Counted from the stretch's first letter, positions 30,966-51,576 are shown. The stretch: 64,000 nucleotides of DNA from a bacterium (GCA_965216315.1 CBDCFN010000016.1:416001-480000), one strand, 5' to 3'. The notes: generated from the letters alone by a model not told the origin. A program made the numbers and translations.

Positions 30966-30991
30966 GTTCGGCTACGCTTATAAAAAGTTGC
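30966..30991 (-). promoter_or_regulatory. Shared bipartite promoter-like motif (paralogs 2-1)
   Basis: GCAAC TTTTT ataagcgtag CCGAAC. Confidence 0.65.
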
Positions 30992-31048
30992 TCCAAATTA
31001 GAAAAAGTGAAAAGTTTTCTATATTCTCTATAATTTCAACATGTTATT

Positions 31049-32488
31049 TTAGTTGCATATTAATAGAAAAGGACCAGCTCCAGTGAGGGCCTCACGCGCA
31101 CAAGTCTCATTGACGATTTCCTGAGCAGTCAGGGCACGATTGTAGACCGTGACATCATCTATGATTCCATCGAAATTATAGAGAGAAGCTGAAGGCATCC
31201 CAGTTGTATCGATGGAGCCACCAATCCGCGTCGGGGCGGGATTGAGAGTCGTGCCCGCCAACGCATCGGATACAACCATAACCGTCTCTTCAGTTCCATC
31301 GACAAAAAGTTTAGCTCCACTAGCCATCGTGGATCCATCATAGGTGACGGCCACATGATGGGGAGTCCCCGGGGAATTAAAGAGAGTCGTCGAATCAATG
31401 CGGAGTCGGTTGCCCGTACTGCTGTCACTCACCAAGAAGAGATCGAGGGTGTCAGTAGAACTAAAGCCAAACCAATAACCTCGTTGCAAGACGGGATCGG
31501 TATAGTCGGCCCGTGCAAAGATAGTATGGTCGGAGCCAACAGCCTGGCGGTTGGTCCAGGCGGAGATAGTAAAGGGGCTCGAAGCATCGAAATTCAAGAT
31601 GTCACCGAGTTCAACGAAATCGTCAGTGCCATCGAAGGTCAAGGCTCCCCCGATAAAGCCCGGGACCCAGGCAGATGCGAGATCGAAATTAGTCAGGACT
31701 CCATTGTTGCCTGCACTGCTGGAATCAGTAGCGGAACTGCCAGCGCCGTTGTCCATACGCCACCAGCCGAGTAAGGAATTGTCGGTGGAGAAGGAGCGCA
31801 CGGGACTGTAGTCCGTACAGTCGGTTCCGCCCGCATCGTAACAGGTCTGGACCTTCCAAAAATAACTTTGCGATGGGGTTAAAGGATCGATGACACGGAA
31901 GCGATTGGTGTCGATGGTTTCATTGGGGCACTCGTCGGCATCATCGATATCGGCCAGCCCGACCGCGGTGTAGCAGGAACGATACCAGGTGGAGTTGCCT
32001 CCCGGAATGACGCCGTCTTGCCAGGACATAAAGGCGCGTGCGGGTGGCAATGTCTGTCCATCGGTGGGGAGCGATTGAGTTGGGATGTGGTCGGAGGGAT
32101 AACCGGCTCCACTATCATCATTGGCATCGGAGCTGGCGTCGACGATTGGGCCACCATCAGGGCCCCCGTCGCCAGGACCAATAGTGCCATCACGTGCACC
32201 GACATATGAGTCATTAAATGAACATCCAGCCAAAAGACATAAGATCGTGCTAAGAATAAGACTCTCTAATAGCGATGAAGAGGCGCTTTCTTTAATTGTT
32301 GTAGGATCATGAATAGCTGGCTTTTTAATATGCCTCTGTGGCCGAATATTTGCTGTGGATCCAATTAATTTGGATTCTTGTATTGAGAGCGATGTAAAGG
32401 TTTTCTGCGTTTGCAGAGGAGTACTGCAAAGAACAGTTTGTGATAACAACGATGATGATATACCGCTAATAATGTTCATAAGGCGCAA
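31049..32488 (-). CDS. LamG domain lipoprotein, paralog 3
   Basis: Long leader, lipobox LAGC (Cys89), same architecture. Start is TTG 32488 or ATG 32479. Confidence 0.8.
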   Translation of the reverse strand: MRLMNIISGISSSLLSQTVLCSTPLQTQKTFTSLSIQESKLIGSTANIRPQRHIKKPAIHDPTTIKESASSSLLESLILSTILCLLAGCSFNDSYVGARDGTIGPGDGGPDGGPIVDASSDANDDSGAGYPSDHIPTQSLPTDGQTLPPARAFMSWQDGVIPGGNSTWYRSCYTAVGLADIDDADECPNETIDTNRFRVIDPLTPSQSYFWKVQTCYDAGGTDCTDYSPVRSFSTDNSLLGWWRMDNGAGSSATDSSSAGNNGVLTNFDLASAWVPGFIGGALTFDGTDDFVELGDILNFDASSPFTISAWTNRQAVGSDHTIFARADYTDPVLQRGYWFGFSSTDTLDLFLVSDSSTGNRLRIDSTTLFNSPGTPHHVAVTYDGSTMASGAKLFVDGTEETVMVVSDALAGTTLNPAPTRIGGSIDTTGMPSASLYNFDGIIDDVTVYNRALTAQEIVNETCAREALTGAGPFLLICN

Positions 32489-32541
32489 CCGCTAACATTA
32501 AAGATAGTCAGGCTATCCAGCAGTATCGCACCTGAATCTAG

Positions 32542-32567
32542 CATCGTATTTCATTACAAAAAGTTGT
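32542..32567 (-). promoter_or_regulatory. Shared bipartite promoter-like motif (paralog 3)
   Basis: ACAAC TTTTT gtaatgaaat ACGATG. Confidence 0.65.
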
Positions 32568-32664
32568 GCAAAACTTCATGAGCTGCTGCGATAGGGCTAT
32601 AACTTACTGTTATTATTTCTTTTATAGGAGTACTTTTTTATGGCTGGTAGGCGGTTAGGGCAGG

Positions 32665-33888
32665 CTAATTGCAAATAGGACTCAATGCTGACATATCATT
32701 GGTTTCTTGTCGATTGAGAGCCTCGCGGGCGCAGGTTTCATTGACGATTTCCTGAGCAGTCAGGGAACGATTATAAACCGTGACATCATCAATAATTCCC
32801 TCAAAATTATAGAGAGATGCCAGCGGCATCCCAGCTATATCGATAGAACCTCCAATTCGTGCCGGAGCCGGATTGAGAGTTGTGCCCGCCAACGCATCGG
32901 ATACAAACGTTACGGCGTCTTCAACTCCATCGACAAAAAGTTTAGCGCCAGCGGCCATCGTGGACCCATTATAAGTGACGGCCACATGATGGGCAGTATT
33001 CGGGGCATTAAAGAGAGTCGTCGAATCGATGCGGAGCCGATCACCGGTGCTGCTGTCACTAACTAAGAAGAAGTTGAGGGTGTCAGTAGAGCTAAAGCCA
33101 AACCAATAACCCCGTTGAAGGGTTGGGTCGGTATAATCAGCCCGTGCAAAGATAGTATGATCGGCGCCCACGGACTGGCGGTTTGCCCAAGCCGAGATGG
33201 TAAAAGAGTTTGTGGCGTCAAAATTCAAAATATCACCGAGTTCAACGAAGTCATTAGTGCCATCGAAGCTGAGGGCGCCTCCGACAAGGCCCGGGACCCA
33301 GGCGGTTGAGGTATCAAAATTAGTCAGGATTCCATTATTTCCGGCACTGCTGGAATCTGTGGCTGTGCTGCCGGTGCCATCGTCCATGCGCCACCAGCCA
33401 AGAAGTGAATCGTCAGTAGAATAAAAACGAATGGCACTATATTCGGAGACTGTATCGTCATTGTATCTTGTGCGAACCTTCCAGTGATAAGTTGTATTTG
33501 GAGTAAGTAGGGGAGTGACATCATAAGCTGTTGCGACCAATTTGCTTCCAGGGCAAGCAGCGCCTTGAATGGAGGTAAGTCCTTCCGTCGTTTGGCATAT
33601 TTCGAAGCTGCTAATGATCTTGTCCGCCGGAACATTAACTGCTTGCCAAGATTGGAAGGAACGCGTCGGAGGAAGCAGCGAACCGTCGGGTGGGAATGTG
33701 AGCGATGGAATACCACTCCCAACGGCGATGCCACCGACTCCTCCTGAGCCGGTCATTCCACCGAGCTGCCCGTCAGAATACTCATCTAGGCCGAGAATCT
33801 CACTACAGCTGGTTGCGCTTAGCCCTAAGCCGAATACGAGGAGTGCTCGACCAGCTGTTGAATTAATACTTGTACCAATTAGAGTCAT
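32665..33888 (-). CDS. LamG domain lipoprotein, paralog 4
   Basis: Short signal with ATSC (Cys28), Gly-rich linker, same architecture. Confidence 0.8.
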   Translation of the reverse strand: MTLIGTSINSTAGRALLVFGLGLSATSCSEILGLDEYSDGQLGGMTGSGGVGGIAVGSGIPSLTFPPDGSLLPPTRSFQSWQAVNVPADKIISSFEICQTTEGLTSIQGAACPGSKLVATAYDVTPLLTPNTTYHWKVRTRYNDDTVSEYSAIRFYSTDDSLLGWWRMDDGTGSTATDSSSAGNNGILTNFDTSTAWVPGLVGGALSFDGTNDFVELGDILNFDATNSFTISAWANRQSVGADHTIFARADYTDPTLQRGYWFGFSSTDTLNFFLVSDSSTGDRLRIDSTTLFNAPNTAHHVAVTYNGSTMAAGAKLFVDGVEDAVTFVSDALAGTTLNPAPARIGGSIDIAGMPLASLYNFEGIIDDVTVYNRSLTAQEIVNETCAREALNRQETNDMSALSPICN

Positions 33889-33890
33889 AC

Positions 33891-35165
33891 CTAATTACAA
33901 ATTGAAGGCAAGGCAGACATGTCATTAGTTTCCTGTCGATTAACGGCCTCGCGCGCACAGGTCTCATTGACGATCTCTTGAGCAGTCAGGGCACGGTTGT
34001 AAACCGTGACATCATCTATGATTCCATCGAAATTATAGAGGGAGGCTGAAGGCATGCCAGTGACATCAACCGATCCACCAATCCGCGCCGGAGCGGGATT
34101 GAGAGTCGTGCCCGCCAACGCATCGGATACAACCGTAACCGTCTCTTCAGTCCCATCCACGAAAAGTTTGGCTCCACTAGCCATCGTGGAGCCGTCATAG
34201 GTCACGGCCACATGATGGGGAGTATTCGGGGTATTAAAGAGAGTCGTCGAATCGATGCGGAGTCGGTTGCCCGTACTGCTGTCACTAACCAAGAAGAGGT
34301 CGAGGGTGTCAGTAGAACTAAAGCCAAACCAATAACCTCGTTGCAGGACGGGATCCGTATAATCAGCCCGTGCAAAGATGGTGTGGTCGGAGCCCGCAGC
34401 CTGGCGGTTGGTCCACGCGGAAATAGTAAAAGGGCTCGAAGCATCAAAGTTCAAGATGTCACCGAGCTCAACGAAGTCGTCAGTGCCATCGAAGGTCAAG
34501 GCCCCGCTGACCAAGCCCGGGACCCAGGCGGTTGAGGTATCAAAATTAGTCAGGGTGCCGTTATTGCCCGCACTGCTGGAATCACTGGCTGTGCTGCCGG
34601 AACCTTCATTGAAGCGCCACCAGCCGAGTAAGGAATTGTCGGTGGAGAAGGAGTGCACGGGGCTGTAGTCCGTACAGTCGGTTCCGCCCGCATCGTAACA
34701 GGTCTGGACCTTCCAAAAATAACTTTGCGATGGGGTTAAAGGATCGATAATACGAAAAAGGTTGGTATCGATCAATTCATTCGGACAGTTCGCGGCGTTT
34801 GAGATAGCGGCTATATTAGCCGCATGGCAGGAACGATACCAGGTGGAATTGCCCTCAGGAACGACACCATCTTGCCAGGATATAAACGCACGCGCAGGCG
34901 GCAATGATTGTTTGTCAGCCGGTTGTGATTGAAGTGGGATGTGATCGGCAGGATAACTGTTGTCGATGGTTCCGCCACTGCCGCCCATTCCGGCTGTTCC
35001 GCCCGTCGTTATCATGCCACCGGTTCCACCGGTAGAGCTCCCTGGAGGATCGCCAATTTTGTCCCGGTCGACTTCAGTTAGGAATGAGCAGCTTGCGACG
35101 CCCATACTGAATCCCAGCGCGAGTGCAAGTCGAGAGCTGGTTGCAGATGCCATGAATCCGTTCAT
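33891..35165 (-). CDS. LamG domain lipoprotein, paralog 5
   Basis: Short signal with VASC (Cys26), Gly/Thr linker. AAGGAG SD. Confidence 0.8.
   Translation of the reverse strand: MNGFMASATSSRLALALGFSMGVASCSFLTEVDRDKIGDPPGSSTGGTGGMITTGGTAGMGGSGGTIDNSYPADHIPLQSQPADKQSLPPARAFISWQDGVVPEGNSTWYRSCHAANIAAISNAANCPNELIDTNLFRIIDPLTPSQSYFWKVQTCYDAGGTDCTDYSPVHSFSTDNSLLGWWRFNEGSGSTASDSSSAGNNGTLTNFDTSTAWVPGLVSGALTFDGTDDFVELGDILNFDASSPFTISAWTNRQAAGSDHTIFARADYTDPVLQRGYWFGFSSTDTLDLFLVSDSSTGNRLRIDSTTLFNTPNTPHHVAVTYDGSTMASGAKLFVDGTEETVTVVSDALAGTTLNPAPARIGGSVDVTGMPSASLYNFDGIIDDVTVYNRALTAQEIVNETCAREAVNRQETNDMSALPSICN
33946..34748. repeat. About 800-bp near-identical direct repeat, copy A (within paralog 5)
   Basis: Matches 35312-36114 (offset 1366) with only a handful of substitutions seen by eye. 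Confidence 0.9.
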
Positions 35166-35193
35166 ATAATATATCTCCTTCTCCAGTGTGTGG

Positions 35194-35219
35194 TGTCGAC
35201 TAGAGGCAAGAATTGTTGT
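35194..35219 (-). promoter_or_regulatory. Shared bipartite promoter-like motif (paralogs 5-4)
   Basis: ACAAC AATTC ttgcctctag TCGACA. Confidence 0.5.
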
Positions 35220-35271
35220 GGAACCGAAATAAAATTCGTTTACTGGAGTAAACAGCTAAAAGGTGCTTATG

Positions 35272-37032
35272 CTATTGACAGGGACTTGGGAGCGGATCCG
35301 AACTCGCAAGAGCCTCGCGCGCACAGGTCTCATTGACGATCTCTTGAGCAGTCAGGGCACGGTTGTAAACCGTGACATCATCTATGATTCCATCGAAATT
35401 ATAGAGGGAGGCTGAAGGCATGCCAGTGACATCAACCGATCCACCAATCCGCGCTGGGGCGGGATTGAGAGTCGTGCCCGCCAACGCATCGGATACAACC
35501 GTAACCGTCTCTTCAGTCCCATCCACAAAAAGTTTAGCTCCACTAGCCATCGTGGAGCCGTCATAGGTCACGGCCACATGATGGGGAGTATTCGGGGTAT
35601 TAAAGAGAGTCGTCGAATCGATGCGGAGTCGGTTGCCCGTACTGCTGTCACTAACCAAGAAGAGGTCGAGGGTGTCAGTAGAACTAAAGCCAAACCAATA
35701 ACCTCGTTGCAGGACGGGATCCGTATAATCAGCCCGTGCAAAGATGGTGTGGTCGGAGCCCGCAGCCTGGCGGTTGGTCCACGCGGAAATAGTAAAAGGG
35801 CTCGAAGCATCAAAGTTCAAGATGTCACCGAGCTCAACGAAGTCGTCAGTGCCATCGAAGGTCAAGGCCCCGCTGACCAAGCCCGGGACCCAGGCGGTTG
35901 AGGTATCAAAATTAGTCAGGGTGCCGTTATTGCCCGCACTGCTGGAATCACTGGCTGTGCTGCCGGAACCTTCATTGAAGCGCCACCAGCCGAGTAAGGA
36001 ATTGTCGGTGGAGAAGGAGTGCACGGGGCTGTAGTCCGTACAGTCGGTTCCGCCCGCATCGTAACAGGTCTGGACCTTCCAAAAATAACTTTGCGATGGG
36101 GTTAAAGGATCGATGACACGGAAGCGATTGGTGTCGATGGTTTCATTGGGGCACTCGTCGGCATCATCGATATCGGCCAGCCCGACCGCGGTGTAACAGG
36201 AACGATACCAGGTGGAGTTGCCTCCTGGAATGACGCCGTCCTGCCAGGACGTAAAGGCGCGCGCGGGTGGCAATGTCTGTCCATCGGTGGGGAGCGATTG
36301 AGTTGGGATGTGGTCGGACGGATAAACAGTTCCAGCATCAGTCATGTCGGCCACATCGTCCGGTCCGTCATCTGTATCAGTATCAAGGACAGCGTCGGGA
36401 GAGGTATCAATTGTTCCATCAGAACTGTCTGTATCAGCCAGGCTGTCACTCGTATTTATGTCAGAAATATCCGCAGATGTATCGGTGATTACATCTGCAT
36501 CGTTTTCATTTATGTCAGGTATGTCAAATTCTACATCTACATCTTGAGGGACGTCTATTAAAGCTATGTCTGTGTCGGCATCTTCGACGCGAGAATCTTG
36601 GATATCTCTTTCCACATCATTAATCGTGTCATCCTCTGCATCTGGAATGAAAAGGTCAGGTAGGGGGGCGTCACCGCCAATCCCGCTATCGAGGAGATCA
36701 GGGTCCAAAGATTCTCCGTCAATTTGGTCAAACCGGCTCAAGTCACCATCAAATTGGCAGCCTGCACTGAAGATTAGGAGTCCTGCGGTAATGCCAAGTA
36801 AACGCTTTGCGAGACTATAGGACCTCTTCGGAGTTTCGACAGTTGATGCAGGGAATCCCGTTCTTTCAGTGAACTGAAAAGTCTGATTACTCTCTGTCGT
36901 AATTGGAATAAAACGAGTCTCATTTGCCTGTTGATGAGTGGGTAGTGTTGCTAAGGTACCAGTTTGTAATGAATTGCTGAGTGCAAGTGACGTTAATGTA
37001 GATGATGTGTTAGATAAGGATATGAAACTCAT
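35272..37032 (-). CDS. LamG domain lipoprotein, paralog 6 (long Asp-rich linker)
   Basis: Start moved to ATG 37032: it has a GGAG SD, and the shared promoter-like motif falls inside the longer ORF call. Lipobox SAGC (Cys92). Confidence 0.8.
   Translation of the reverse strand: MSFISLSNTSSTLTSLALSNSLQTGTLATLPTHQQANETRFIPITTESNQTFQFTERTGFPASTVETPKRSYSLAKRLLGITAGLLIFSAGCQFDGDLSRFDQIDGESLDPDLLDSGIGGDAPLPDLFIPDAEDDTINDVERDIQDSRVEDADTDIALIDVPQDVDVEFDIPDINENDADVITDTSADISDINTSDSLADTDSSDGTIDTSPDAVLDTDTDDGPDDVADMTDAGTVYPSDHIPTQSLPTDGQTLPPARAFTSWQDGVIPGGNSTWYRSCYTAVGLADIDDADECPNETIDTNRFRVIDPLTPSQSYFWKVQTCYDAGGTDCTDYSPVHSFSTDNSLLGWWRFNEGSGSTASDSSSAGNNGTLTNFDTSTAWVPGLVSGALTFDGTDDFVELGDILNFDASSPFTISAWTNRQAAGSDHTIFARADYTDPVLQRGYWFGFSSTDTLDLFLVSDSSTGNRLRIDSTTLFNTPNTPHHVAVTYDGSTMASGAKLFVDGTEETVTVVSDALAGTTLNPAPARIGGSVDVTGMPSASLYNFDGIIDDVTVYNRALTAQEIVNETCAREALASSDPLPSPCQ
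35312..36114. repeat. About 800-bp near-identical direct repeat, copy B (within paralog 6)
   Basis: Matches 33946-34748. Confidence 0.9.
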
Positions 37033-37082
37033 TTTTTTCTCCGCAATACGTATATAGTAATACCGTTCATATTGCGCGAAAG

Positions 37083-37108
37083 AATCGTATTGTTGGATGG
37101 AAAGTTGC
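37083..37108 (-). promoter_or_regulatory. Shared bipartite promoter-like motif (paralog 6)
   Basis: GCAAC TTTCC atccaacaat ACGATT. Confidence 0.6.
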
Positions 37109-37197
37109 GGAAAAACAAGGTTAGGTGTCAAATAAACTTAACACTTGAATACAAAAGATAGCGATATCTTTAAAGAGAGTGCTACATCACTCAAATA

Positions 37198-38643
37198 TCA
37201 ATTGCATATTGACGGTAAGGGATCAGAGCCAGCGAGAGCTTCGCGCGCGCAAGTCTCATTGACGATTTCCCGAGCAGTGAGGGCTCGATTATAGATCACG
37301 AGATCATCAAGAACTCCATCAAAGCTATAGAGAGAAGCTAAGGGCATTCCACTTGGATCAATAGAGCCACCAATCCGTGCCGAAGCGGAATTGAGGGTCG
37401 TGCCTGTTAATGCATCGGTGACTACAGTGGAGGTTTCTTCAGTTCCGTCGACAAAGAGCCTTGCCCCTGCAGCCATAGTTGAGCCGTCATAGGTGACGGC
37501 AACATGATGAGGAGCGCTGGGGGTATCGAAGACAGTTGTTGAATCAATACGAATCCGGTTTCCGGTACTGCTATCGCTGACGAAGAAGAGATCAAGCGTA
37601 TCAGAAGAGCTGAATCCAAACCAATAACCACGTTGTAGGGCTGGATCCGTATAATCCGCCCTGGCAAAAATAGTATGATCAGACCCAACGGATTGACGGT
37701 TAGTCCAGGCGGAGATTGTATAGGGGGTCGTTGAATCGAAATTTAAAGTATCACCGAGCTCTACAAAGTCATTCGTACCATCAAAGTTTAAGGCCCCACC
37801 AATAAAACCCGGAACCCAGGCGGAAGCGATATCAAAATTAGTCAGGGTGCCGTTATTGTCAGCACCGCTGGAATCACTAGCCGTCATTCCGGAACCTTCA
37901 TTGAAGGTATAGCGTGCAAGCAAGGAGCTATCTGTGTTGACCATGCGCAGGGCACTGCCCATGGAGCGCGAACCATCATCGTATAAAGCTCTTACCTTGA
38001 CATGATAGGTAGAGCTTGGATTTGTAATATTAATTGCACCGAATGGAGACGTTACAGTGTTGCTCTGTGGGCATTCAGTAGAATCATCGATAGATGTAGT
38101 CCCAGTTGTTGTATAGCAAATCTCGTATCCTGCAATAGATCTGCCCGGAGGGAGTGTAGCCGCTGGATCCCAGCGGATAAAAATACGGTTGTTGGGCAAA
38201 GAGATATCTGTTGCAGGAATCGTAATCGTCGAATTGTCGTCAATGACTGGACCACTGTCACCGGCATCATTGGTGCTTCCATCTATATCGGCATCCGGGC
38301 TTGCATCGGGAATGGGTCCTCCATCGGGGCCCCCGTCACCTCCACCATCGATAGTGACACCACGGCCTCTTCCATCTAATAAGCAACCACTGCCAAATAA
38401 ACTGAGCACGCCTCCGATAATGAAAGTCGGTAACACTAAAGCGGCATGGCGAAGTCTGCGCTGGTTTGTTTCGTTGAGTAAGCGCGTCAGTGTCGAATTT
38501 TGCGTCACGGATTCGAGTAGAGGTTGAGCCAAATGGTTCGTGTTCGTTGTACTCGGAAGGCTTGGGGGCAGCTGCTGTAAAGAACTCGCCAGGACGGGCC
38601 GAGCCGACAGTAGGAATGGTGTCATCGGATTGATTAGACGCAT
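37198..38643 (-). CDS. LamG domain lipoprotein, paralog 7
   Basis: GGAG SD, long leader, GSGC (Cys87), divergent FN3-like domain, LamG. Confidence 0.8.
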   Translation of the reverse strand: MRLINPMTPFLLSARPVLASSLQQLPPSLPSTTNTNHLAQPLLESVTQNSTLTRLLNETNQRRLRHAALVLPTFIIGGVLSLFGSGCLLDGRGRGVTIDGGGDGGPDGGPIPDASPDADIDGSTNDAGDSGPVIDDNSTITIPATDISLPNNRIFIRWDPAATLPPGRSIAGYEICYTTTGTTSIDDSTECPQSNTVTSPFGAINITNPSSTYHVKVRALYDDGSRSMGSALRMVNTDSSLLARYTFNEGSGMTASDSSGADNNGTLTNFDIASAWVPGFIGGALNFDGTNDFVELGDTLNFDSTTPYTISAWTNRQSVGSDHTIFARADYTDPALQRGYWFGFSSSDTLDLFFVSDSSTGNRIRIDSTTVFDTPSAPHHVAVTYDGSTMAAGARLFVDGTEETSTVVTDALTGTTLNSASARIGGSIDPSGMPLASLYSFDGVLDDLVIYNRALTAREIVNETCAREALAGSDPLPSICN

Positions 38644-38666
38644 GGTTTCTCCAAATTACTCAAGCA

Positions 38667-40124
38667 TCAGTTGCATATAGATGGTAGAGAGCCGGATCCA
38701 GCAAGAGCCTCACGCGCACAAGTCTCATTAGAGATTTCCTGAACAGTCAGGGCCCGATTATAAACAGCGATATCATCAATGATCCCCTCAAAATTATAGA
38801 GAGATGCCAGTGGCATCCCCGCTGTATCGATAGAACCTCCAATCCGTGCCGGGGCGGGATTGAGAGTCGTGCCCGCCAACGCATCGGATACAACCGTAAC
38901 CGTCTCTTCAGTTCCATCCACAAAAAGTTTAGCTCCACTAGCCATCGTGGAGCCGTCATAGGTCACGGCCACATGATGGGGAGTACTAGGTGTGTTAAAG
39001 ACAGTTGTAGAATCGATGCGGAGTCGGTTACCCGTACTGCTGTCACTCACCAAAAAGAGGTTGAGGGTGTCAGTAGAGCTAAAGCCAAACCAATAACCTC
39101 GTTGCAGGACGGGATCCGTATAATCGGCCCGTGCAAAGATAGTATGGTCAGCGCCGACCGACTGGCGGTTGGTCCAAGCCGAGATGGTAAAGGGGGTGGC
39201 TGAGTCAAAATTTAAGATATCACCGAGTTCCACAAAGTCATTGGCACCGTCAAAACTTAGGCCTCCGCCGACAAGGCCTGGATTCCAGGCGGTTGAGGTA
39301 TCAAAATTAGTCAGGGTGCCGTTATTGCCCGCACTGCTGGAATCACTGGCTGTGCTGCCGGAACCTTCATTGAAGCGCCACCAACCGAGCAGAGAATTAT
39401 CAGTCGAGAAGGAACGCACGGGGCTGTAGTCCGTACAGTCGGTTCCGCCCGCATCGTAACAGGTCTGGACCTTCCAGAAATGACTCTGAGCCGGGCTTAA
39501 GGGGTCAATCACGCGGAAACGATTGGTGTCGATGGTCTCATTGGGGCACTCGGTAGTGTCATCGACATCGGTCATGGCCGTGGCATGACAGGAGCGATAC
39601 CAGGTAGAGGCGCCACCTGGGATGACGCCGTCTTGCCATGACATGAAGGCGCGCGTGGGCGCGAGGAGTTGTCCGTCAGCCGGCAACGATTGCGTCGGGA
39701 TGTGATCGGATGGATAACCGGTACCACCGTCTTCGGCATCGCCGGCGTCACCCGGACCGCCATCCATATCGGCATCCGGACTTGCATCGAGGATGGGGCC
39801 TCCATCGGGGCCGCCATCACCACCATCAGGTCGCGGCGGAGCGGTGCCGCTTCGGTCTAAGAAGCAGCCACTACCGAACAGGGCGAGCAGGCCCCCAATC
39901 ACAAAAGCGGGTATGGCTAAGGCAGAGCGGCGGAGCCGCTGCCGGCTTGGCTCACTGAATAAACGCGTCAGCCCAGAATCCGGAGAAACGGGCTCTAGAG
40001 ATATTTGGGTTGGCGCCGAAATGTCAGCTTGAGTCTGGAGGCCAGTTGGCGCTGGTGATACAGAACTCGCTAAGATGGGCTGAGCCGATAGCAGAAAAGA
40101 CGTTGTCTGACTTATTAGGTGCAT
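38667..40124 (-). CDS. LamG domain lipoprotein, paralog 8
   Basis: GGAG SD, long leader homologous to paralog 7, GSGC (Cys87), FN3-like plus LamG. Confidence 0.8.
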   Translation of the reverse strand: MHLISQTTSFLLSAQPILASSVSPAPTGLQTQADISAPTQISLEPVSPDSGLTRLFSEPSRQRLRRSALAIPAFVIGGLLALFGSGCFLDRSGTAPPRPDGGDGGPDGGPILDASPDADMDGGPGDAGDAEDGGTGYPSDHIPTQSLPADGQLLAPTRAFMSWQDGVIPGGASTWYRSCHATAMTDVDDTTECPNETIDTNRFRVIDPLSPAQSHFWKVQTCYDAGGTDCTDYSPVRSFSTDNSLLGWWRFNEGSGSTASDSSSAGNNGTLTNFDTSTAWNPGLVGGGLSFDGANDFVELGDILNFDSATPFTISAWTNRQSVGADHTIFARADYTDPVLQRGYWFGFSSTDTLNLFLVSDSSTGNRLRIDSTTVFNTPSTPHHVAVTYDGSTMASGAKLFVDGTEETVTVVSDALAGTTLNPAPARIGGSIDTAGMPLASLYNFEGIIDDIAVYNRALTVQEISNETCAREALAGSGSLPSICN

Positions 40125-40173
40125 GGGTTCTCCAATTCACTCAATTAGTCGCACCTAATTAAGTCTACCCATT

Positions 40174-40199
40174 CATCGCTCATCCCGGTAAAAAGTTGT
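40174..40199 (-). promoter_or_regulatory. Shared bipartite promoter-like motif (paralogs 8-7)
   Basis: ACAAC TTTTT accgggatga GCGATG. Confidence 0.65.
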
Positions 40200-40222
40200 G
40201 CCTTTTTGGATTGGCGCCTAAC

Positions 40223-41095
40223 TCATTGAAAATATTTGATATTTGAGCTTTTAAAAGTGAAGTAAAAGACGAGGGCAAAGCCCCAACCGGCGAGGACGTC
40301 GATGAAGTAATGGTGATTCAAGTAGACGGCCGCAAATGCGGCCAAGGCGGCATAGAAATGGAAACACCAACGAAAATGCCCCATTATTCTATGGGCGTAG
40401 CAGGCAACCAGCAGGGGGAATGCGGCATGCATGGAGGGAATAGCGCCGAAGACCCAGGCACTGCGTGCATAAGTATTCTGGAAGTGTTCAAAACCGATCA
40501 AATTATCGAAACGAATCAGGCCTGCTGCGGAGCCAGGAATGGCCCAGCCGACCTTGGCAAAGCCATGAGTGGCTACATACCAAGGTGGCGCGGATGGATA
40601 GGCGATGTAGGCAATGAATGCAAAGAGATTCATGAAGAGAAATGCCCAGCGGAAATTATTGAAATAAGGAGAGCGTCTGATCCACAAGTAGAGTGCAAAG
40701 CCGATTGGAATAACTACGTGAGCGGCATAGACAGCCCCAGTAATGATGTCGAGGATATCATTGTTGTGTGCCATGAAGTAGTTCGTTGGAATAAAGCCCT
40801 TATGAAATCCGATGACTTCAAATAACGCGGCTTCAATGCGGTATGGGCTTTCAATGTGAATTGCACCGGCCCAGTCTTTGGGGAAGATGCGGAGTAGATC
40901 GTAGAGAATGCCGAAGAGTGCAAAAGGAAAAAAATCGATCACCCAACGACGTGTCTGCTGGTGGGTTAGATAGAGCCCAATCATGCAGCTGATGAGTAGG
41001 GCGTGTTCCCACCGAAGCCCAATGCTGAGGCTGATGAGACCTAGATAAGCCAGCCAGAAACAAGGAAACCAGCTTTGTTTCAGTATGTTCTCCAT
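40223..41095 (-). CDS. Aur1/IPC-synthase-like PAP2 membrane phosphotransferase (inositol lipid synthase candidate)
   Basis: 6-7 TMs. YPSAPPWY, FGAIPSMHAA and HHYFIDV match the Aur1/PAP2_3 catalytic motifs. Confidence 0.8.
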   Translation of the reverse strand: MENILKQSWFPCFWLAYLGLISLSIGLRWEHALLISCMIGLYLTHQQTRRWVIDFFPFALFGILYDLLRIFPKDWAGAIHIESPYRIEAALFEVIGFHKGFIPTNYFMAHNNDILDIITGAVYAAHVVIPIGFALYLWIRRSPYFNNFRWAFLFMNLFAFIAYIAYPSAPPWYVATHGFAKVGWAIPGSAAGLIRFDNLIGFEHFQNTYARSAWVFGAIPSMHAAFPLLVACYAHRIMGHFRWCFHFYAALAAFAAVYLNHHYFIDVLAGWGFALVFYFTFKSSNIKYFQ

Positions 41096-42849: not shown

Positions 42850-42874
42850 GAACGCCCTGTTGTTTCCCGGCATC

Positions 42875-42956: not shown

Positions 42957-42957
42957 T

Positions 42958-43362: not shown

Positions 43363-43388
43363 AGTGATCTCCTTTGCCGTGATTAACT

Positions 43389-43405
43389 AGCAAATGAGAT
43401 GCCAA
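43389..43405 (-). promoter_or_regulatory. Sigma54 (-24/-12) promoter of the M15 peptidase gene
   Basis: TTGGCATCTCATTTGCT has GG-N10-GC spacing. An IHF-like TTTCAGCTATTTA lies about 30 nt further upstream. Confidence 0.7.
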
Positions 43406-43546
43406 GTTGATGGCGTTGAAATGAGTCGATATTTTCAGCTATTTACCGCGTGAAGAGAGTCAAATTGAATCGCTAAGTTTCATTCTGAGACGCTAATCAT
43501 AATAGTCGAGGCCAAGGTGCGTAATTTGCTCTTCAGTCATGATAAT

Positions 43547-43616
43547 GGGGGTGTGTGCAGAGCCCAACACCCCCAAACCCCCGGATTGGTTCACTCGGAC
43601 GGAGTGAATCCGATCC
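43547..43616. repeat. Double-hairpin REP-like element downstream of ino1
   Basis: GGGGGTGT..ACACCCCC, AAACCCCC, then GGATTGGTTCACTC-ggacg-GAGTGAATCCGATCC. Confidence 0.55.
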
Positions 43617-43642
43617 TCCTTCACAACAAGTTAGAGCGTAAA

Positions 43643-44956
43643 TTAATCATAGTACTCTAAACCCAAGTGAGTAATCTGCTCTTCACCCATTAAATAGCGC
43701 AAGGTGTTCTTGAGCTTCATCTGCTGGATGAAGAGATCATGTTCCGGGTAGAGGCCTGCAGCGGCCTGGGGGCTCTTGAAATAGAATGAGAGCCATTCCT
43801 GGATACCTTTCATGCCGGCACGTTTGGCGAGGTCGAGGAACAGGATGAGATCTAAAACCAACGGTGCCGCGAGGATGGAGTCCTTGCAGAGAAAATCCAC
43901 CTTGATCTGCATTTTCTCGCCGAGCCACCCGAAAATATCGATATTGTCCCAGCCTTCTTTGTTGTCACCGCGAGGCGGGTAATAGTTGATCCGGACTTTG
44001 TGATAAATATCCCCGTAAAGATCCGGATACAGTTCCGGTTGCAGGATGGAGTCGAGGACGCCGAGTTTACTTTCTTCCTTGGTCTTGAAGGAGCTCGGGT
44101 CATCAAGGACTTCACCGTCGCGATTTCCTAAAATATTCGTTGAAAACCAGCCCTCGACGCCCAGGCAGCGGGCCTTAAAGCCGGGGGATAAGATCGTTTT
44201 CATCAGGGTCTGTCCGGTTTTGAAGTCTTTTCCGCAGATCGGTGTGCTGAATTCCTTGGACAGATCGATCATGGCCGGGAAATCGGCAGACAGATTCGGG
44301 GCGCCATTGGCGTAGGGAATACCGAGTTTGCAGGCCGCATAGGCATAAACCATGCTCGGGGCAATATTGGGGTCGTTATTTTCCAGCCCTTTTTCAAAGG
44401 CGGCGAGATCGTTATGCACTGCCGTCGGTTCAATGAAGACCTCAGTCGAGCCACACCAGATCATAACGAGGCGGTCGATGTTCTTTTTTGTTCGGAATTT
44501 TTCGATGTCCTCTATTAATTGATCCGCTAAGGCCTTTTTGTTGGCGCCTTTTTTAACGTTTGGGCCATCAAGCCGTTTGACGTAATCGCGATCAAACACG
44601 GCCGGCATGGGGCGGATTTCTTCGAGTGGTTCGCGAATGGAGTCGAGCAGTTCTTTGGGGAGAACGCCGGCGTGCGAGGCGGCTTCATAGGCGTTTTCTT
44701 CAAAAATATCCCAGGCCAAAAATTCAATGTCATGCAATTTGGCAAGCGGAGCAAAGTCTTTAATGAAAGGAGTCCGGTTTTCAGTGCGCTTGCCAAGTCG
44801 TATGGTTCCCATTTGAGTGAGGGACCCGATTGGTTTGGATAATCCTTGGCGAATCGCTTCGACACCGGCGACAAAAGTTGTACTGACAGCACCAAGTCCC
44901 ACTAAGAGAACGCCGAGTTTACCGTCGGCCGGTTCAATATTCTTATTTATTTCCAT
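43643..44956 (-). CDS. ino1: myo-inositol-1-phosphate synthase
   Basis: WCGSTE, NGAPN, GKDFKTGQT, NILGNRDG, YYPPRGDNKEGWD and CKDSILAAP. Confidence 0.95.
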   Translation of the reverse strand: MEINKNIEPADGKLGVLLVGLGAVSTTFVAGVEAIRQGLSKPIGSLTQMGTIRLGKRTENRTPFIKDFAPLAKLHDIEFLAWDIFEENAYEAASHAGVLPKELLDSIREPLEEIRPMPAVFDRDYVKRLDGPNVKKGANKKALADQLIEDIEKFRTKKNIDRLVMIWCGSTEVFIEPTAVHNDLAAFEKGLENNDPNIAPSMVYAYAACKLGIPYANGAPNLSADFPAMIDLSKEFSTPICGKDFKTGQTLMKTILSPGFKARCLGVEGWFSTNILGNRDGEVLDDPSSFKTKEESKLGVLDSILQPELYPDLYGDIYHKVRINYYPPRGDNKEGWDNIDIFGWLGEKMQIKVDFLCKDSILAAPLVLDLILFLDLAKRAGMKGIQEWLSFYFKSPQAAAGLYPEHDLFIQQMKLKNTLRYLMGEEQITHLGLEYYD

Positions 44957-45098
44957 CGTCCCATTATCTCCTTTTTCGACGCCCTTAGACTAAATGAATC
45001 CCCTCGCTAACACAGCCAGCCGCTGCCTGTAAACCCCTATGAAATATAAGGTTGTTCTGACTCGCTTTGCGAAAAATTTCAAAAAAACCAGGCTTGGC

Positions 45099-45124
45099 GC
45101 AACTTTTTGAGGTGGGTCGCGATA
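45099..45124 (+). promoter_or_regulatory. Shared bipartite promoter-like motif (113-aa orphan)
   Basis: GCAAC TTTTT gaggtgggtc GCGATA. Confidence 0.65.
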
Positions 45125-45167
45125 AGGGGATTACTAGCTAACTTAGTGATACTTAAAGGGAATTGCT

Positions 45168-45509
45168 GTGATTTTTCGTGCAATTAAAAATATATTCTCG
45201 CTCTTGCCCCATCTCACGCAGCAGGGGGCCATTGAGAAAGAGAAAAAGAAGGAAAAGCCGCGTCTTCTGGATGTGATGCAGGCGCGCTTTCTCTCTGAAG
45301 AGGCCCGGCGGCGCAATGTTGAGTTGTCGGCACTGATCAAGAACAACGGTAACATTGTTGCCGATGAAGCCTTGCAAGAGGGAGTGGAGAAGAAAGTGAA
45401 CGCCTTGATGGCGCCCCACTATCAGCATCCCGAGATCATGGATGAAGTGACGGAAAAATTGACCGACGTTGCGCGTCACGATCCGTATTATCGCCGCTGG
45501 TTCAGCTGA
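45168..45509 (+). CDS. Hypothetical helical protein (113 aa)
   Basis: GTG start with AAAGGGA SD. Fills the gap between ino1 and comM and is preceded by the shared motif. Confidence 0.6.
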   Translation: MIFRAIKNIFSLLPHLTQQGAIEKEKKKEKPRLLDVMQARFLSEEARRRNVELSALIKNNGNIVADEALQEGVEKKVNALMAPHYQHPEIMDEVTEKLTDVARHDPYYRRWFS

Positions 45510-45529
45510 TCATATTTTCACCAATACGC

Positions 45530-47062: not shown

Positions 47063-47065
47063 CGC

Positions 47066-47584
47066 TTAAAAGCCTATCTTTCGGATCGGTTTTTCAGAGG
47101 GCGCCATTAATTCGCGGATTGCGTTGACTAATAATCGAATATCCTCATCCTGTTCTGAGAGTTTGTGTTCAACTCGAGACAGTCGAAGCGATAGTTCGGC
47201 ATTTTGTGCCACCATTTCTCTCATTTTAATGAAGGTCTTGACGATTTGGATGCTCGCTAAGACGGCTGTTTTGCTGTTCAATATATTGGCTAACATTATA
47301 GCGCCGTATTCCGTGAAGGCGTAAGGTAAGCTAGTGGAATGTTTTAGATTTTTGAACCGGTCGCAAATTGCGACCAGTTCAGCCTTTTCTGAGCTGCTTA
47401 CTTGAAACATAAAATCCTCATCTGGAAAGCGATTACGGTTTCTTTTGACCTGTTCATTGAGGCGCTTGGTCGTGACGCCGTAGATCTTGGCGAGATCGGC
47501 ATCGAGCATGACCTTTTGCCCGCGAATGAGCAGAATCGCCTGTTTGATCCGCTCCAGAGGGATGACTGATGCATTCTTCGGCAT
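47066..47584 (-). CDS. ORF6N (KilA-N-related) DNA-binding domain protein
   Basis: IRGQKVMLDADLA.IYGV.TKRLNEQVKRN..RFP, PYAFTE.G and a C-terminal KIGF. Confidence 0.9.
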   Translation of the reverse strand: MPKNASVIPLERIKQAILLIRGQKVMLDADLAKIYGVTTKRLNEQVKRNRNRFPDEDFMFQVSSSEKAELVAICDRFKNLKHSTSLPYAFTEYGAIMLANILNSKTAVLASIQIVKTFIKMREMVAQNAELSLRLSRVEHKLSEQDEDIRLLVNAIRELMAPSEKPIRKIGF

Positions 47585-47597
47585 GGAAGGCCCTATA

Positions 47598-47613
47598 TGC
47601 AAAAGAGATGCCG
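47598..47613 (-). promoter_or_regulatory. Possible sigma54 promoter upstream of ORF6N-comM
   Basis: CGGCATCTCTTTTGCA (GG-N10-GC), very similar to the site at 43389. Confidence 0.4.
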
Positions 47614-47665
47614 CCGTGAGAAGCGCCGGGAGATCCTTTATTGTTAAAGGCTAGAGATGGATATG

Positions 47666-47697
47666 AAAAAGGGGCGCCATTTATGGCGCCCCTTTTT
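47666..47697. terminator. Intrinsic terminator (bidirectional shape) downstream of the adhesin gene
   Basis: AAAAAGGGGCGCCAT-tt-ATGGCGCCCCTTTTT. Confidence 0.85.
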
Positions 47698-47750
47698 GAA
47701 GAGCAGATTCGATTCAATTTGGGACCCGCGGGTCCGAATATGAATCGTGC

Positions 47751-50090
47751 TTAATTACGTCGACGACGCAGGCCGAGTAGCGCGGCCGTCGTGCCGAACA
47801 GCCAGAAAAGGGCCGAGGCACTGCTTGGTGCCGTCATTGAAGCAAGGCTGCAACCGCCACTGCCGAGACAATTGCCGCCATTGCAGTCACAAGCGTCGCC
47901 GATTCCGTCCTCGTCTGCATCCGCCTGATCAGCATTGCTAACCTCAGTGCAGTTATCAACGTCATCAGGAATGCCGTCACCATCTTCGTCTCCAGAGCTT
48001 GGTGTTGATATCGAATCGAGATCGCAGGCGTCTCCAATGCCATCGCCATCGGCATCCGTCTGATCCGCATTGGACACATTAGGGCAATTATCCGTGGCAT
48101 TATCCTCACCGTCGCCGTCGGTGTCGCTTTCGGCAATGCAGACGGCGCTACAGCCATCTCCATTGTCATTATTGCCGTCGTCGCATATTTCACCGGCATC
48201 TATAATGCCGTTGCCGCAGCCAAACTCAGTAGCACCGATATCCGAGGTGATGGTACCATCTCCATCTCCGTCAATCCGACCGACACCTACTTGATCGGTA
48301 GCAGGAGCATCCGCGTCGTCACCCGAGTCTATTGCCGGACTCCCGCTTTCAAGGTAGTGTGCTCCTGTGGGAATTCCGTTGGCCGGGTCACCGCCATTGG
48401 CCGGGATTAGAGCCGTCAGCATTGGGTCTATTTCATTTCCCAATGCTCCTTCGATGTCATTAAGACTAGTGTCGAAGTTTTCATCGTCACAACCCTCATT
48501 CGTTCCGAGTATGTTGTTCCCACCTGAGGTTACCGGATTCCCATTCGTACCGCAGTCGGGAGCCGACGTTGCATCAAAATTGCCCGCGATGATCGAATTG
48601 GTAACCGTGAATGTTCCCGCAGATGCTTCTAAATGGATGCCGCCGCCGTCACCGTTGCCGTCAAAATCGGAGTCAGCCTGGTTGTTCGTAATGGTGACGT
48701 TCAAGAGGGTTACGGTAGCGGTGCTAGTGTCGTTGTTGATGCCGCCTCCGCTTCTACCTGAGCTGTTGCCGCTGATAGTCGAATTGGTGACAACAACCGC
48801 TCCTCCATCGGCCTGGATCCCTCCGCCATCATTAGACGAACTGTGATTATTAGAGATAGTAGAGTCTGTAACGGTGAGGCTGCCGCCACCTTCACTTTCA
48901 ATGCCACCGCCTTCGCTCGAAGCGGTATTCCCATCGACCGTTGTGCCGGTGACGGTGGTTGTTATTCCTGTGGCTTCGATTCCTCCTCCGTCGCCAAGTA
49001 ATGCATCATTATTGGCGATCGTACTATTTGTGATAGTTAGTAAAGTTTTACTGATGTCACCCGTTGCATCTCCGTCCGCTGCAATGCCTCCGCCTCCACC
49101 ATCAGAAATGTTTCGGATAATTGATGTGCCCGTAATCGTGGCTGTGGTCGTGAATGCCGCATTGTTGTTAAAAACCATTATGCCGCCGGCCTTACTTGTT
49201 ATTGTTTCATTGTCTGAAATGACTGAATCAGTCACGGCCAAGGTGGTTCCTGAGTTCAAATATATGCCACCGCCTTGATCGTTGGCTTCATTTTGGGAAA
49301 TAGTGCTTGATGTTATAGTAACGCTGGAACCATTGTCGGTGACATAGATACCGCCTCCATTTTCGGTGTCTACATCAGCACCCGTATCTGATGTGCGGTT
49401 GTCACTGATGATACTGCCAGTGATTTCAACGACTGAACCGTCTTCCACATGTACGCCGCCTCCCGTGCCGTCTTCTGCTATGTTGTTGTTGATCAGGCTA
49501 TTTTGGATAATGACCGTGCCGGTGTTGCTTTGGTTATTGTCGACCCGGATGCCGCCGCCGTTTCCTCCTCCACTGTCCCCCGTGTCGTTATTTTGGATAA
49601 CAACCGAATCGAGAATGACGTTAGCATCATAATCATCGGCACGGAAACCGCGAAACCCGCCTGTAAGGGTTAGGCCGGAAATAGTGTGGGGACCTGGGGG
49701 CGCGAAACCGGTGTCGTGATCGACCTCCATTACAATGTTGCCGTTGCTATTATTATCGATAATCAGTGAATCGGCGCCCGGGCCCTGTACGGCCACCGGA
49801 GTATCCAAGATGATTGTGGCATTTGTCGTGATGGTGGTTCCGGATCCCGCAGGAAAAACGGTAGAGTCAAAAATGATAGTATCAGGTGTGTTGTCCAGAT
49901 CTGCTGTTTCAATAGCATCGAGGATATCGCAGTTTCCAGCTCCAGTACACGTGGCCGCGCAGTCAACACCTCCCCCTCCACCTGTAAAGGAAATGTTATT
50001 GACGCAGATATCAGCCGCGTGTGCCGCGTGAGAGGACATTATTGCAGCGATGCCTGCGAAGGTAAAATAAACAAGTGGCCTTAATAGCAT
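47751..50090 (-). CDS. Surface adhesin-like protein: beta-helix (GGGI repeats, choice-of-anchor Q-like), Myxococcus Cys-rich repeat, TSP3 repeats, MYXO-CTERM
   Basis: Sec signal ending AAHA, repeated GGGI..., SPAIDSG, CGNG...CDDGN..DGCS..C, DNCP..N.DQ.D.DGDG.GDAC, and C-terminal GGCS + TM + RRRR. Confidence 0.85.
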
Positions 50091-50192
50091 GACTAATCTC
50101 CCCCTGAAAAATGAATGCTTGGATAATAAATAGGTTAGATTTAATAATTTTATTGTTCTGGTGATAATAGGTCAATTTAAAAGGCAAATTAA

Positions 50193-50236
50193 GTGTACCG
50201 TGGTACACGATTAATTATTAACATATTGATATGTTA
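50193..50236. promoter_or_regulatory. Two palindromes and an IHF-consensus site upstream of the adhesin
   Basis: GTGTACC-gt-GGTACAC (50193-50208) and TAACATA-ttga-TATGTTA (50219-50236). The second contains TATCAAtatgTTA on the minus strand. Confidence 0.45.
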
Positions 50237-50350
50237 GAAAGATTTGGAATGAATCGAGATTCTCGATCACAATCAGTTTGTAAAGTTGTCCTATTCGGCC
50301 TCTTATTCGGTTAACCAGCGTTCCGTATCGATCGCCGCCAGTTTTCATAG

Positions 50351-50429
50351 CAGGGGGCACCAGTAAACCCTCGCCCCCTGTACCCCCCCCTGATGGGTTC
50401 ACGCACCCTGAAGTGAATTCAGCGTGCGT
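50351..50429. repeat. Double-hairpin REP-like element downstream of trxB
   Basis: CAGGGGGC..GCCCCCTG, TACCCCCCCC, GGTTC, then ACGCAC.CTGAA..TTCAG.GTGCGT. Confidence 0.55.
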
Positions 50430-50452
50430 TCACAACCACTTTGCATGGCGGC

Positions 50453-51391
50453 TTAACTTTCTTGCTCTTGGAGCCATCTTTCCGCATCGATCGCCGCCAT
50501 ACATCCTGATCCGGCGGCGGTGATGGCCTGGCGGTAGCGATGGTCCTGGACATCCCCGCAGGCGAAAACGCCGGGGATGTTTGTGCGGGTGTTATCACTG
50601 GTTTTGATATAGCCCGCTTCATCGAGCTCGATTTGGCCTTTAAAGATTTCGGTATTCGGATCATGGCCGATCGCGACAAAAAGCGCCTGGCAGTCGAGCG
50701 TTTGTTCTTCTCCCGTCTTGACGTTTTTGATGCGAATTCCCTCGACCTCTTTGTCGCCAATAACCTCTTCGACGACGGAGTCCCAGACGACGCTGATCTT
50801 GTCATGATTAAGCGCACGGTCCTGCATAATCTTTGAGCCGCGCAGTTGGTCGCGGCGATGGATCAAGCGAACGTCGGTTCCGAACTTGGTGAGAAAGATT
50901 GCCTCTTCGAGCGCCGTATCACCCCCTCCGACGACAACGATGCGTTGATCGCGAAAAAAAGCGCCATCGCAGGTCGCGCAGGTGGAGACGCCTTTGCCGC
51001 GAAGTCGGGTTTCCGACTCAAGGCCCAGCCAACGCGCGCTGGAGCCCGTCGAGAGGATTACCGATTTGGCGCGGTATTCGTCGTTGCCGACTTTAACGAG
51101 AAAAGGCTTCTGGGAAAAATCCACTTCGGTGACATCTTTGCTGATAAAACGCGTGCCGAAACGTTCGGCTTGTTTGCGGAGATCCGCCATCATTTCCGGG
51201 CCCATCACACCTTCGGGATAACCGGGAAAGTTTTCGACGTCGGTCGTGAGCATGAGTTGCCCACCAGATTGATAGCCTTCGATCATTAAAGGATCGAGGT
51301 CCGCACGGGCATTGTAGATAGCCGCGGTCAGTCCTGCCGGGCCGCTGCCAATAATGATGATGTTTTCGACTTTCTGCTCAAGTTCTGTCAT
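50453..51391 (-). CDS. trxB: Thioredoxin-disulfide reductase
   Basis: IIGSGPAGLTAA, GGQL..TT.VENFPG, CATCDG, GGGDTALEEA and YRQAITAAG.G. Confidence 0.97.
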   Translation of the reverse strand: MTELEQKVENIIIIGSGPAGLTAAIYNARADLDPLMIEGYQSGGQLMLTTDVENFPGYPEGVMGPEMMADLRKQAERFGTRFISKDVTEVDFSQKPFLVKVGNDEYRAKSVILSTGSSARWLGLESETRLRGKGVSTCATCDGAFFRDQRIVVVGGGDTALEEAIFLTKFGTDVRLIHRRDQLRGSKIMQDRALNHDKISVVWDSVVEEVIGDKEVEGIRIKNVKTGEEQTLDCQALFVAIGHDPNTEIFKGQIELDEAGYIKTSDNTRTNIPGVFACGDVQDHRYRQAITAAGSGCMAAIDAERWLQEQES

Positions 51392-51550
51392 TTCGGTATC
51401 TCCGCAGTTGTTTGATTCTTAGGGCCTCAATAGGTTTCATTTCCTTCATTTGCCGCTGTTAAGGACTCTCTCTCTTAGCGACGTGTCTCTGAGAATGCAA
51501 TGCCTATCCAAAAGTGTAAAAAACTGAATGATTTTAGCTAGATATTTGAC

Positions 51551-51576
51551 GCAACAAAATGAGGGGAGTGCCGAAA
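51551..51576 (+). promoter_or_regulatory. Shared bipartite promoter-like motif (1066-aa orphan)
   Basis: GCAAC AAAAT gaggggagtg CCGAAA. Confidence 0.5.

Follow-up and report, generated by a model that had tools for sequence, protein, structure and literature searches.

A fixed-spacing promoter motif at a LamG lipoprotein locus points to a sigma-28-type regulon linked to a type III secretion cluster

What reads a promoter-like motif that recurs at one fixed spacing in front of genes that are not all related to each other? The question is raised by a 64,000-nucleotide stretch of a bacterial genome (GCA_965216315.1 CBDCFN010000016.1:416001-480000, called here the window; positions without a contig name are counted in it), in which seven copies of the motif RCAAC-N16-CGA precede five units of LamG lipoprotein genes and two other genes. 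The bacterium probably belongs to the phylum UBA10199; its genome (G000) is 2.96 Mb and 98% complete, and the gene set used consists of 2591 calls of the longest open reading frame made for this analysis, some starts therefore being wrong. An original prediction made from the window took the seven copies to define a regulon of accessory genes co-expressed by one dedicated alternative sigma factor, and that part of it is supported as probable: as judged from sequence, the sites are very probably sigma-28-type promoters read by a sigma factor that is encoded inside the genome's type III secretion system (T3SS) cluster.

All seven copies are found where, and on the strand on which, they had been reported; the notation N15-NCGA first used for the spacer is equivalent to N16-CGA. 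The window holds 12 matches in all, against 3.2 +/- 2.1 expected and equalled by none of 100 shuffles of the window, so that the enrichment over shuffled background is confirmed; the five further matches fall inside coding regions, duplicated LamG sequence accounting for three. Weight-matrix scores of the sites that head the five LamG units and the two other genes range from 14.5 to 24.1 bits. On the minus strand are the N16 promoters of LamG unit 8-7 (40174..40199, 21.3 bits), LamG gene 6 (37083..37108, 14.5 bits; probable start ATG at 37032), unit 5-4 (35194..35219, 14.5 bits), gene 3 (32542..32567, 17.4 bits) and unit 2-1 (30966..30991, 21.1 bits). On the plus strand a near-consensus site (45099..45125, 24.1 bits), kept in 34 of 34 orthologues examined, heads a gene for a 113-aa protein discussed below as a candidate anti-sigma factor, and the last site (51551..51576, 17.5 bits) is followed by an ATG 13 nt past CGA, its mRNA probably being leaderless or near-leaderless. 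Of the nearby genes to which TTGAC-type -35 boxes had been ascribed, ssb and the Aur1-like gene do have one, whereas no such box lies within 110 nt upstream of pal.

Genome-wide the motif has 174 intergenic matches at N16, 37 at N17 and 31 at N18, the other spacings from 10 to 23 giving 5-15 each, and 168 of the 174 are oriented towards a gene on the same strand. The weight matrix finds 279 sites in the real genome versus 17 in the reversed one at 16 bits or more, and 381 versus 46 at 14 bits or more; 296 genes were assigned to matrix sites over the whole genome, and promoters of this kind number about 260-330. The regulon is not the handful of accessory genes first envisaged, and takes in roughly a tenth of the genome instead. 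The strict motif is present in all 65 phylum genomes (5-78 matches each, controls 0-2), and 0 strict sites occur in a 9.7-Mb genome whose only match to the sigma factor described below is distant and partial (one of five handles, a single case).

The full consensus is GCAACTTT-N11-GCCGATAA. The -10 consensus of 219 N16 sites, gcCGATaA, matches the sigma-28 -10 box GCCGATAA, and RCAAC stands in place of the sigma-28 -35 box TAAAG: there are 119 intergenic occurrences of CAAC-N16-CGAT, and 3-18 across all spacings when TAAA or TAAG is taken as the -35. In the fliC promoter of P. aeruginosa, TCTAAAG spans -36 to -30 and GCCGATAA spans -15 to -8 (PMC12784957), and the spacing of RCAAC-N16-CGA equals the TAAAG-N16-CGA geometry of that promoter, which places +1 eleven bases past the A of CGA. 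Exactly there, 11 nt past that A, ATG codons peak (25 of 199 sites); transcription would thus start about 11 nt past the A, and not some 5-8 nt past CGA as first proposed. A ribosome-binding site precedes 10 of the 84 genes whose start lies 9-14 nt downstream versus 74 of 125 with longer leaders, and many transcripts are therefore probably leaderless. The ATG peak and the ribosome-binding-site pattern support promoter function independently of the motif count, and the sites appear to be active promoters. Some further sites are of interest for what they head. In one relative (L091, G022) rpoD itself has an N16 promoter about 100 nt upstream. About 20 genes make up a 50-kb run (G000:C16:2159181-2208403), the majority of them each with a near-perfect copy of the promoter and several starting with Cys-containing N-termini. 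Paralogous genes with a YLDYR-type N-terminus, which we take to be TIGR02147-like, stand under the promoter at C16:97715, 105078, 284396, 2280780 and 2295210 and at C15:467493.

The sigma factors of the genome are RpoD, an RpoH-like protein, two extracytoplasmic function (ECF) factors, RpoN and one FliA/WhiG-like factor (RpoD, RpoH and the ECFs being named by eye), the latter the only FliA-like one among five sigma-70-family matches. Its gene (G000:C16:350511-351410) lies inside the T3SS cluster among sctD, J, L, N, Q, R, T and V, which bears out the link between regulon and secretion that had been drawn by analogy with HrpL. The protein matches TIGR02479 with E=1e-38 and 133 bits, below the cut-off of 189.6, and its best PDB matches are WhiG/FliA (E=3e-24 to 2.5e-13). 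A FliA-like sigma is present in all 31 genomes examined, flagellin in three of the 31. Region 2.4 is well kept, whereas the -35-reading helix (region 4.2) has KSWTSR versus ESRVSQ in FliA; residues S200, K201, S202, W203, S205 and R206 are invariant in 32 of 32 aligned rows, which were selected on this motif. By alignment an Arg occupies the position of P. aeruginosa Q228, a residue that makes a base-specific -35 contact (PMC12784957). The factor would be a sigma-28 paralogue whose -35-reading helix has changed alongside the -35 box, the -10 box and spacing being retained. Of the mixed ECF and sigma-28 reading first given to the motif, the sigma-28 -10 box and spacing stand and the ECF half does not; nor is the expected autoregulatory copy present directly upstream of the sigma gene.

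Three flagellated relatives allow a comparison. Their flagellin leaders have, by eye, a TAAAG-like box and no CAAC motif in three of three, and each genome encodes one more sigma-70-family protein about as long as FliA, the ESRVSQ helix being visible in one of the three. Where both occur, the T3SS-linked sigma appears to be orthogonal to the flagellar FliA. The same leaders (L087, L088 and L089) read TAAAG, TCAAG or TTAAG, 14-15 nt and then TCCGT (by eye, in all three), and their flagellar sigma-28 may have a changed -10 box. A second, shorter SKSWASRLH-type sigma with 41% identity is encoded in another relative (L082, G018).

The T3SS cluster that holds the sigma gene is the only one in the genome. 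Its single SctV/FlhA-family gene scores 806 bits as SctV (cut-off 692) and below the cut-off as FlhA; SctJ, N, L, R, T, D and Q are matched by profile, and SctS and a separate SctU were recognized by eye, which gives the core set SctV, J, N, L, R, S, T, U, D and Q of a non-flagellar T3SS. No flagellin and no rod or hook domains were found in the genome. A needle-like gene of 183 aa lies between sctD and a TPR gene (order sctD-small-F-TPR) and has a conserved C-terminal helix; the top three of its four PDB matches are needle-type chains, at the weak E-values of 0.017, 0.31 and 0.48, and the gene after the sigma gene matches the rod protein MxiI (SctI) with E=0.0015. Sequence matches and gene order agree, and a needle is probably part of the machine. 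For the conserved 117-aa gene that precedes sctF no useful match was found, and it is unrelated to the 113-aa family. A search for CesT chaperones gave no match, but is uninformative because its control likewise remained without any match, and the sheath of the type VI secretion system was found in none of 31 genomes.

The 113-aa protein encoded at 45168..45509 (plus strand) is conserved and helical, and it is no orphan as had been thought, being encoded by a single-copy gene in 46 of the 65 phylum genomes; the promoter lies upstream in 24 of 24 orthologues and in a further ten of ten. The family stands alone (103 clusters): searches of Pfam, of NCBIfam and of PDB by sequence and by fold all came back without a match, and an Atlas search gave no usable result; the model of the protein has pLDDT 77. 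In a model of its complex with the sigma factor the score is 0.88, the best control reaching 0.00; that mark is attained by 116 of 157 solved pairs and by 2 of 215 mismatched pairs. At least 59% of the contacts agree between runs, with a partner pLDDT of at least 62, and the last two helices (residues 76-111) are modelled on sigma regions 2, 3 and 4, mostly on region 3. No match to the FlgM family was found in the genome, and the 113-aa protein is without FlgM sequence or fold similarity. The flgM gene is transcribed by the same sigma that FlgM inhibits. A small protein modelled as sigma-binding and placed under the sigma's own strong promoter, like FlgM and, in a different family, BtrA (PMC10732220), is on these grounds fairly likely to be a FlgM-like anti-sigma factor, and the sigma would then drive its own inhibitor, a negative feedback that is probably relieved by secretion of the 113-aa protein.

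The promoters fall into two spacer classes. The needle-gene promoter of all 26 orthologues examined has a long spacer (24 N18, 2 N17, 0 N16), and the N18 sites of G000 head other cluster genes together with ordinary Sec or lipoprotein genes (11 of 19 Sec-like). Uncharged N-termini occur in 130 of 197 N16 genes, versus none of 19 N18 genes and 166 of 2091 other genes. A plain motif test for the N-terminal tag described below is positive in 74 of 216 N16, 1 of 23 N18 and 73 of 2091 other genes (N16 versus N18, p=0.002). Spacer length may tune strength or timing. From N17/N18 promoters the sigma would drive late machine parts (the needle and further genes of the cluster) as well as Sec lipoproteins, and from N16 promoters roughly 150 tagged proteins.

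The tag is recognized by LAS, which of all words is the most strongly enriched in the N-termini of the regulon (38 of 199 versus 41 of 1778, p=6.5e-19) and which usually stands at residues 13-21 behind a stretch of S, T, L and A; it is S/T-rich and uncharged, and because all synonymous codons occur in it, selection acts on the protein. The N16 promoters head mostly orphan proteins with an uncharged LA(S/A) tag, but also additional copies of enzymes of metabolism and lipid synthesis, and the LamG lipoproteins. Among 24 high-scoring tag proteins not directly headed by a site, 16 lie inside motif-headed operons versus a background of about 8%, and tag-like starts are kept in phosphofructokinase (PFK), ACC and LamG homologues from other records, while 0 of 98 ordinary single-chain ACC homologues have one. 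A Pfam scan covered 152 of the 161 tagged candidates and gave no match for 108. The recognizable ones include metabolic proteins (phosphofructokinase, glutamate dehydrogenase (GDH), malic enzyme, cysteine desulfurase), lipid-related ones (patatins, a lipid kinase, an acyltransferase, an acyl-CoA ligase, a FAS-like protein, and an ACC fused to a biotin ligase of its own, in addition to a separate one in the genome) and others of signalling and further function (RelA/SpoT, GGDEF, adenylate cyclase, histidine and Ser/Thr kinases, a helicase-sigma-4 fusion). Untagged paralogues exist, and the tagged copies are N-terminally longer for PFK, SufS, GDH, malic enzyme and ACC; RtcB and amidase copies have no such extension, and the tagged amidase is probably a false member. 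On balance the tag is somewhat more probably a T3SS export signal than something else, and its bearers may be exported by the type III machine to a bacterial target.

Two of the tagged loci are notable for their gene content. At G000:C15:370001-381898 a gene for a FAS-like protein of 3856 aa stands with a 98-aa ACP-like gene, each with its own tag; no ketoacyl-synthase domain was detected in the 3856-aa protein, which is therefore named FAS-like only, and the ACP-like protein has no Pfam match and is named by eye and position. At C16:1626042-1641915 an acyl-CoA ligase, the ACC-biotin ligase fusion and a 1991-aa orphan each have their own tag. The tagged helicase fused to an RpoD-like region-4 domain (G000:C16:91474-94539) has MzaA as its best NCBIfam match, far below the cut-off.

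The LamG genes of the window, all on the minus strand, encode eight proteins of which every one has a lipobox-like Cys, in five of the eight at residue 86-92, past tag and linker. LamG lipoprotein 8 (38667..40124) has tag, linker, a Sec-type signal and lipobox Cys87; LamG-family lipoprotein 7 (37198..38643) has the tag and Cys87, LamG lipoprotein 6 (35272..37032) the tag and Cys92, LamG-family lipoprotein 3 (31049..32488) the tag and a Cys at 86-89 depending on the start chosen, LamG lipoprotein 2 (29484..30947) the tag and Cys92, and LamG lipoprotein 1 (28170..29462) the tag and Cys43. LamG-family lipoproteins 5 (33891..35165, Cys26) and 4 (32665..33888, Cys28) have short leaders, the latter with a low tag score. 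Where present, the tag precedes a second, normal Sec-type signal, and the Cys stays at residue 86-92 in the five copies although their linkers differ. The copies share long near-identical DNA blocks (28170-40124), which suggests recent duplication or gene conversion. The promoter at 51551..51576 heads a 1066-aa protein with an uncharged N-terminal tag (51587..54787, plus strand), in which a glycerol-3-phosphate dehydrogenase-like middle domain is a weak lead only (Atlas score 0.82; PDB E=1.3). Among the neighbours, an Aur1-like PAP2_3 protein (40223-41095) and, by eye, a myo-inositol-1-phosphate synthase (43643-44956), which adjoins the 113-aa gene in 15 of 29 loci, together suggest inositol lipids; a secreted beta-helix protein (47751-50090) with TSP3 repeats and a C-terminal GCS/hydrophobic/basic tail lies outside the regulon.

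Taken together, a T3SS-linked sigma-28 regulon with a FliA/FlgM-like checkpoint and exported tagged proteins is a rather likely explanation of the whole. The circuit probably copies the flagellar FliA/FlgM checkpoint onto an injectisome: the machine would be built, the inhibitor exported, and the sigma would then turn on needle, surface proteins and cargo. Several findings weigh against it. A dedicated secretin SctC is not in the cluster, and the sole full secretin belongs to what seems to be a type II operon; the E-values make the needle assignment a weak one, Pfam and Foldseek lend it no support, and the AlphaFold model of the needle candidate is poor (pLDDT 57, only the C-terminal helix being confident). 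Of the basic residues that directly follow the WxPR motif of the sigma, the two that appear by alignment to correspond to R94/R95 of E. coli (10.1101/2020.01.02.893370) are not conserved. The 113-aa family is without a match in 19 of 65 genomes, all having the motif, and its modelled footprint is centred on region 3, unlike that of FlgM, whose last helix occupies the region-4 groove of sigma (PMC12784957). Because N16 genes served to train the tag score, independent tests of the tag are limited to those on operon-internal genes and on homologues; distant relatives are less uniform, with 11 of 36 N16 genes uncharged; and some of the tagged chains reach great lengths (2588 and 3856 aa). A search of the genome gave no further FabA/Z or ketoacyl synthase, and the cell may make its fatty acids solely with the tagged FAS-like and ACC proteins, for which a cytoplasmic location could then be argued.

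If cargo is exported, a bacterial recipient would fit the tag placed before a Sec lipoprotein signal, the bacterial signalling domains and the lack of ankyrin proteins; ankyrin repeats number 0 in G000 and occur in 3 of 21 genomes, a scarcity that gives no support for a eukaryotic host. Across 31 genomes of the class, LpxC was found in none, FabA/Z in three and a FabD-type acyltransferase domain in 14; it seems that the group for the most part cannot synthesize lipid A or type II fatty acids, which would fit a dependent lifestyle. It is a tentative suggestion, and as yet a doubtful one, that these are parasites or predators of bacteria with a secretin-less injectisome, a transplanted FliA/FlgM-type checkpoint, a new anti-sigma family and about 150 tagged proteins sent into the bacterial cytoplasm. 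Spacer length (18 versus 16) would then order machine before cargo; proteins for making lipids (FAS-like and ACP-like proteins, acyl-CoA ligase, acyltransferase and the ACC fused to its biotin ligase) would be delivered together with carbon and redox enzymes and with domains for (p)ppGpp, c-di-GMP and two-component signalling; and delivered lipoproteins would be completed by the Sec system of the recipient.

The main rival, which is considered unlikely, keeps the same sigma for a life-stage regulon like the Bdellovibrio attack phase, the tagged proteins staying inside and the tag being a shared degradation or localisation signal that clears stage-specific isozymes. The size of the regulon and its mix of surface proteins do resemble Bdellovibrio (PMC3627812), the tagged enzymes need ATP, NADPH or CoA, the lack of any other FabA/Z or ketoacyl synthase and the motif at rpoD in one relative are in keeping with it; it accounts less well for the 108 of 152 tagged proteins without Pfam match, for the untagged housekeeping paralogues, for a tag that also precedes Sec lipoprotein signals and for an ACC with a fused biotin ligase despite the separate one. 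It is more improbable still that the tag is an atypical cleavable Sec signal peptide whose cargo leaves by Sec and the type II system, an idea that draws on the type II operon and on the resemblance of phi-L-A/S to a signal peptidase I site, small residues following the L-A at about residues 13-21: the tag has no positive n-region, its median peak hydrophobicity is 1.49 versus 2.57 for untagged lipoprotein signals, only one SecY and one full-length SecA are encoded, and the LamG proteins have their normal Sec signal behind the tag. That an ECF sigma reads the motif, as its AAC was taken to indicate, is hardly credible: one ECF gene does have GCAACTTTT upstream, though with no CGA at N16, but the -10 box and spacing are of sigma-28 and not ECF type, RCAACT with TCT, CGT or GTC shows no intergenic enrichment at any spacing, the ECF gene has no autoregulatory copy, and that ECF is unmatched in 12 of 31 motif-rich genomes, a count that is no proof of absence because the query also missed the second ECF of G000.

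For the T3SS-linked sigma-28 regulon precedents exist in an expanded FliA regulon (PMC3627812), a secreted T3SS anti-sigma factor (PMC10732220) and a secretin-less T3SS (PMC3459982). With the FliA/FlgM system of P. aeruginosa (PMC12784957) it shares the -10 box GCCGATAA, the TAAAG-N16-CGA geometry, a FliA/WhiG-family sigma, a late filament gene under that sigma and, in the candidate anti-sigma, a small putative inhibitor that would bind by two C-terminal helices (modelled here); it is unlike it in the -35 RCAAC, the helix KSWTSR, an injectisome-type cluster, the lack of any flagellin found, about 260-330 promoters, and a partner of different modelled footprint without FlgM similarity. In Bdellovibrio bacteriovorus FliA uses TTAAG-N16-CCGATA at 92 of 140 attack-phase promoters and is likewise a global sigma-28 regulator of many non-flagellar and unknown genes (PMC3627812), but that FliA is flagellar with a canonical -35, whereas a T3SS-linked paralogue and a tagged cargo class are found here. 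The Bordetella BtrS/BtrA pair comprises a sigma beside a T3SS and a secreted anti-sigma that couples expression to secretion, with a BtrA regulon of near 300 genes in B. bronchiseptica (PMC10732220); BtrS is an ECF, whereas the sigma here is of sigma-28 type and secretion of its candidate inhibitor is a conjecture. The secretin-less 'Myxo' T3SS or T3SS* of Myxococcus, the T3SS* acting on bacterial prey, also has no secretin in the cluster and has an early-branching look with FliG-, FliO-, FliK- and FliM-like parts (PMC3459982, PMC10849154), unlike which the present cluster has, by weak matches, a needle-like SctF and a rod-like SctI. Chlamydia trachomatis is another T3SS-bearing bacterium whose sigma-28 serves non-flagellar late genes, with only two bound promoters (hctB and tsp), unlike here (PMC12282069). 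The combination of these known elements, the altered -35 box, the family of the candidate anti-sigma, the two classes of spacer and the tag were not found described in the literature searched, which takes in subscription journals only in small part.

The promoter can be scanned for in any genome of the phylum and is thus a sequence handle on its secretion repertoire and lifestyle. The sigma, promoter and candidate anti-sigma are small and testable in E. coli without culturing the organism, and the new -35 box would make such a sigma-28 an orthogonal part for expression work. Were the cargo injected into bacteria, this would be takeover by delivered metabolic pathways, of which no description was found in the same literature. 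The system is also a plausible living intermediate in which flagellar regulation, by sigma-28 and a secreted inhibitor, would have been carried over to injectisomes.

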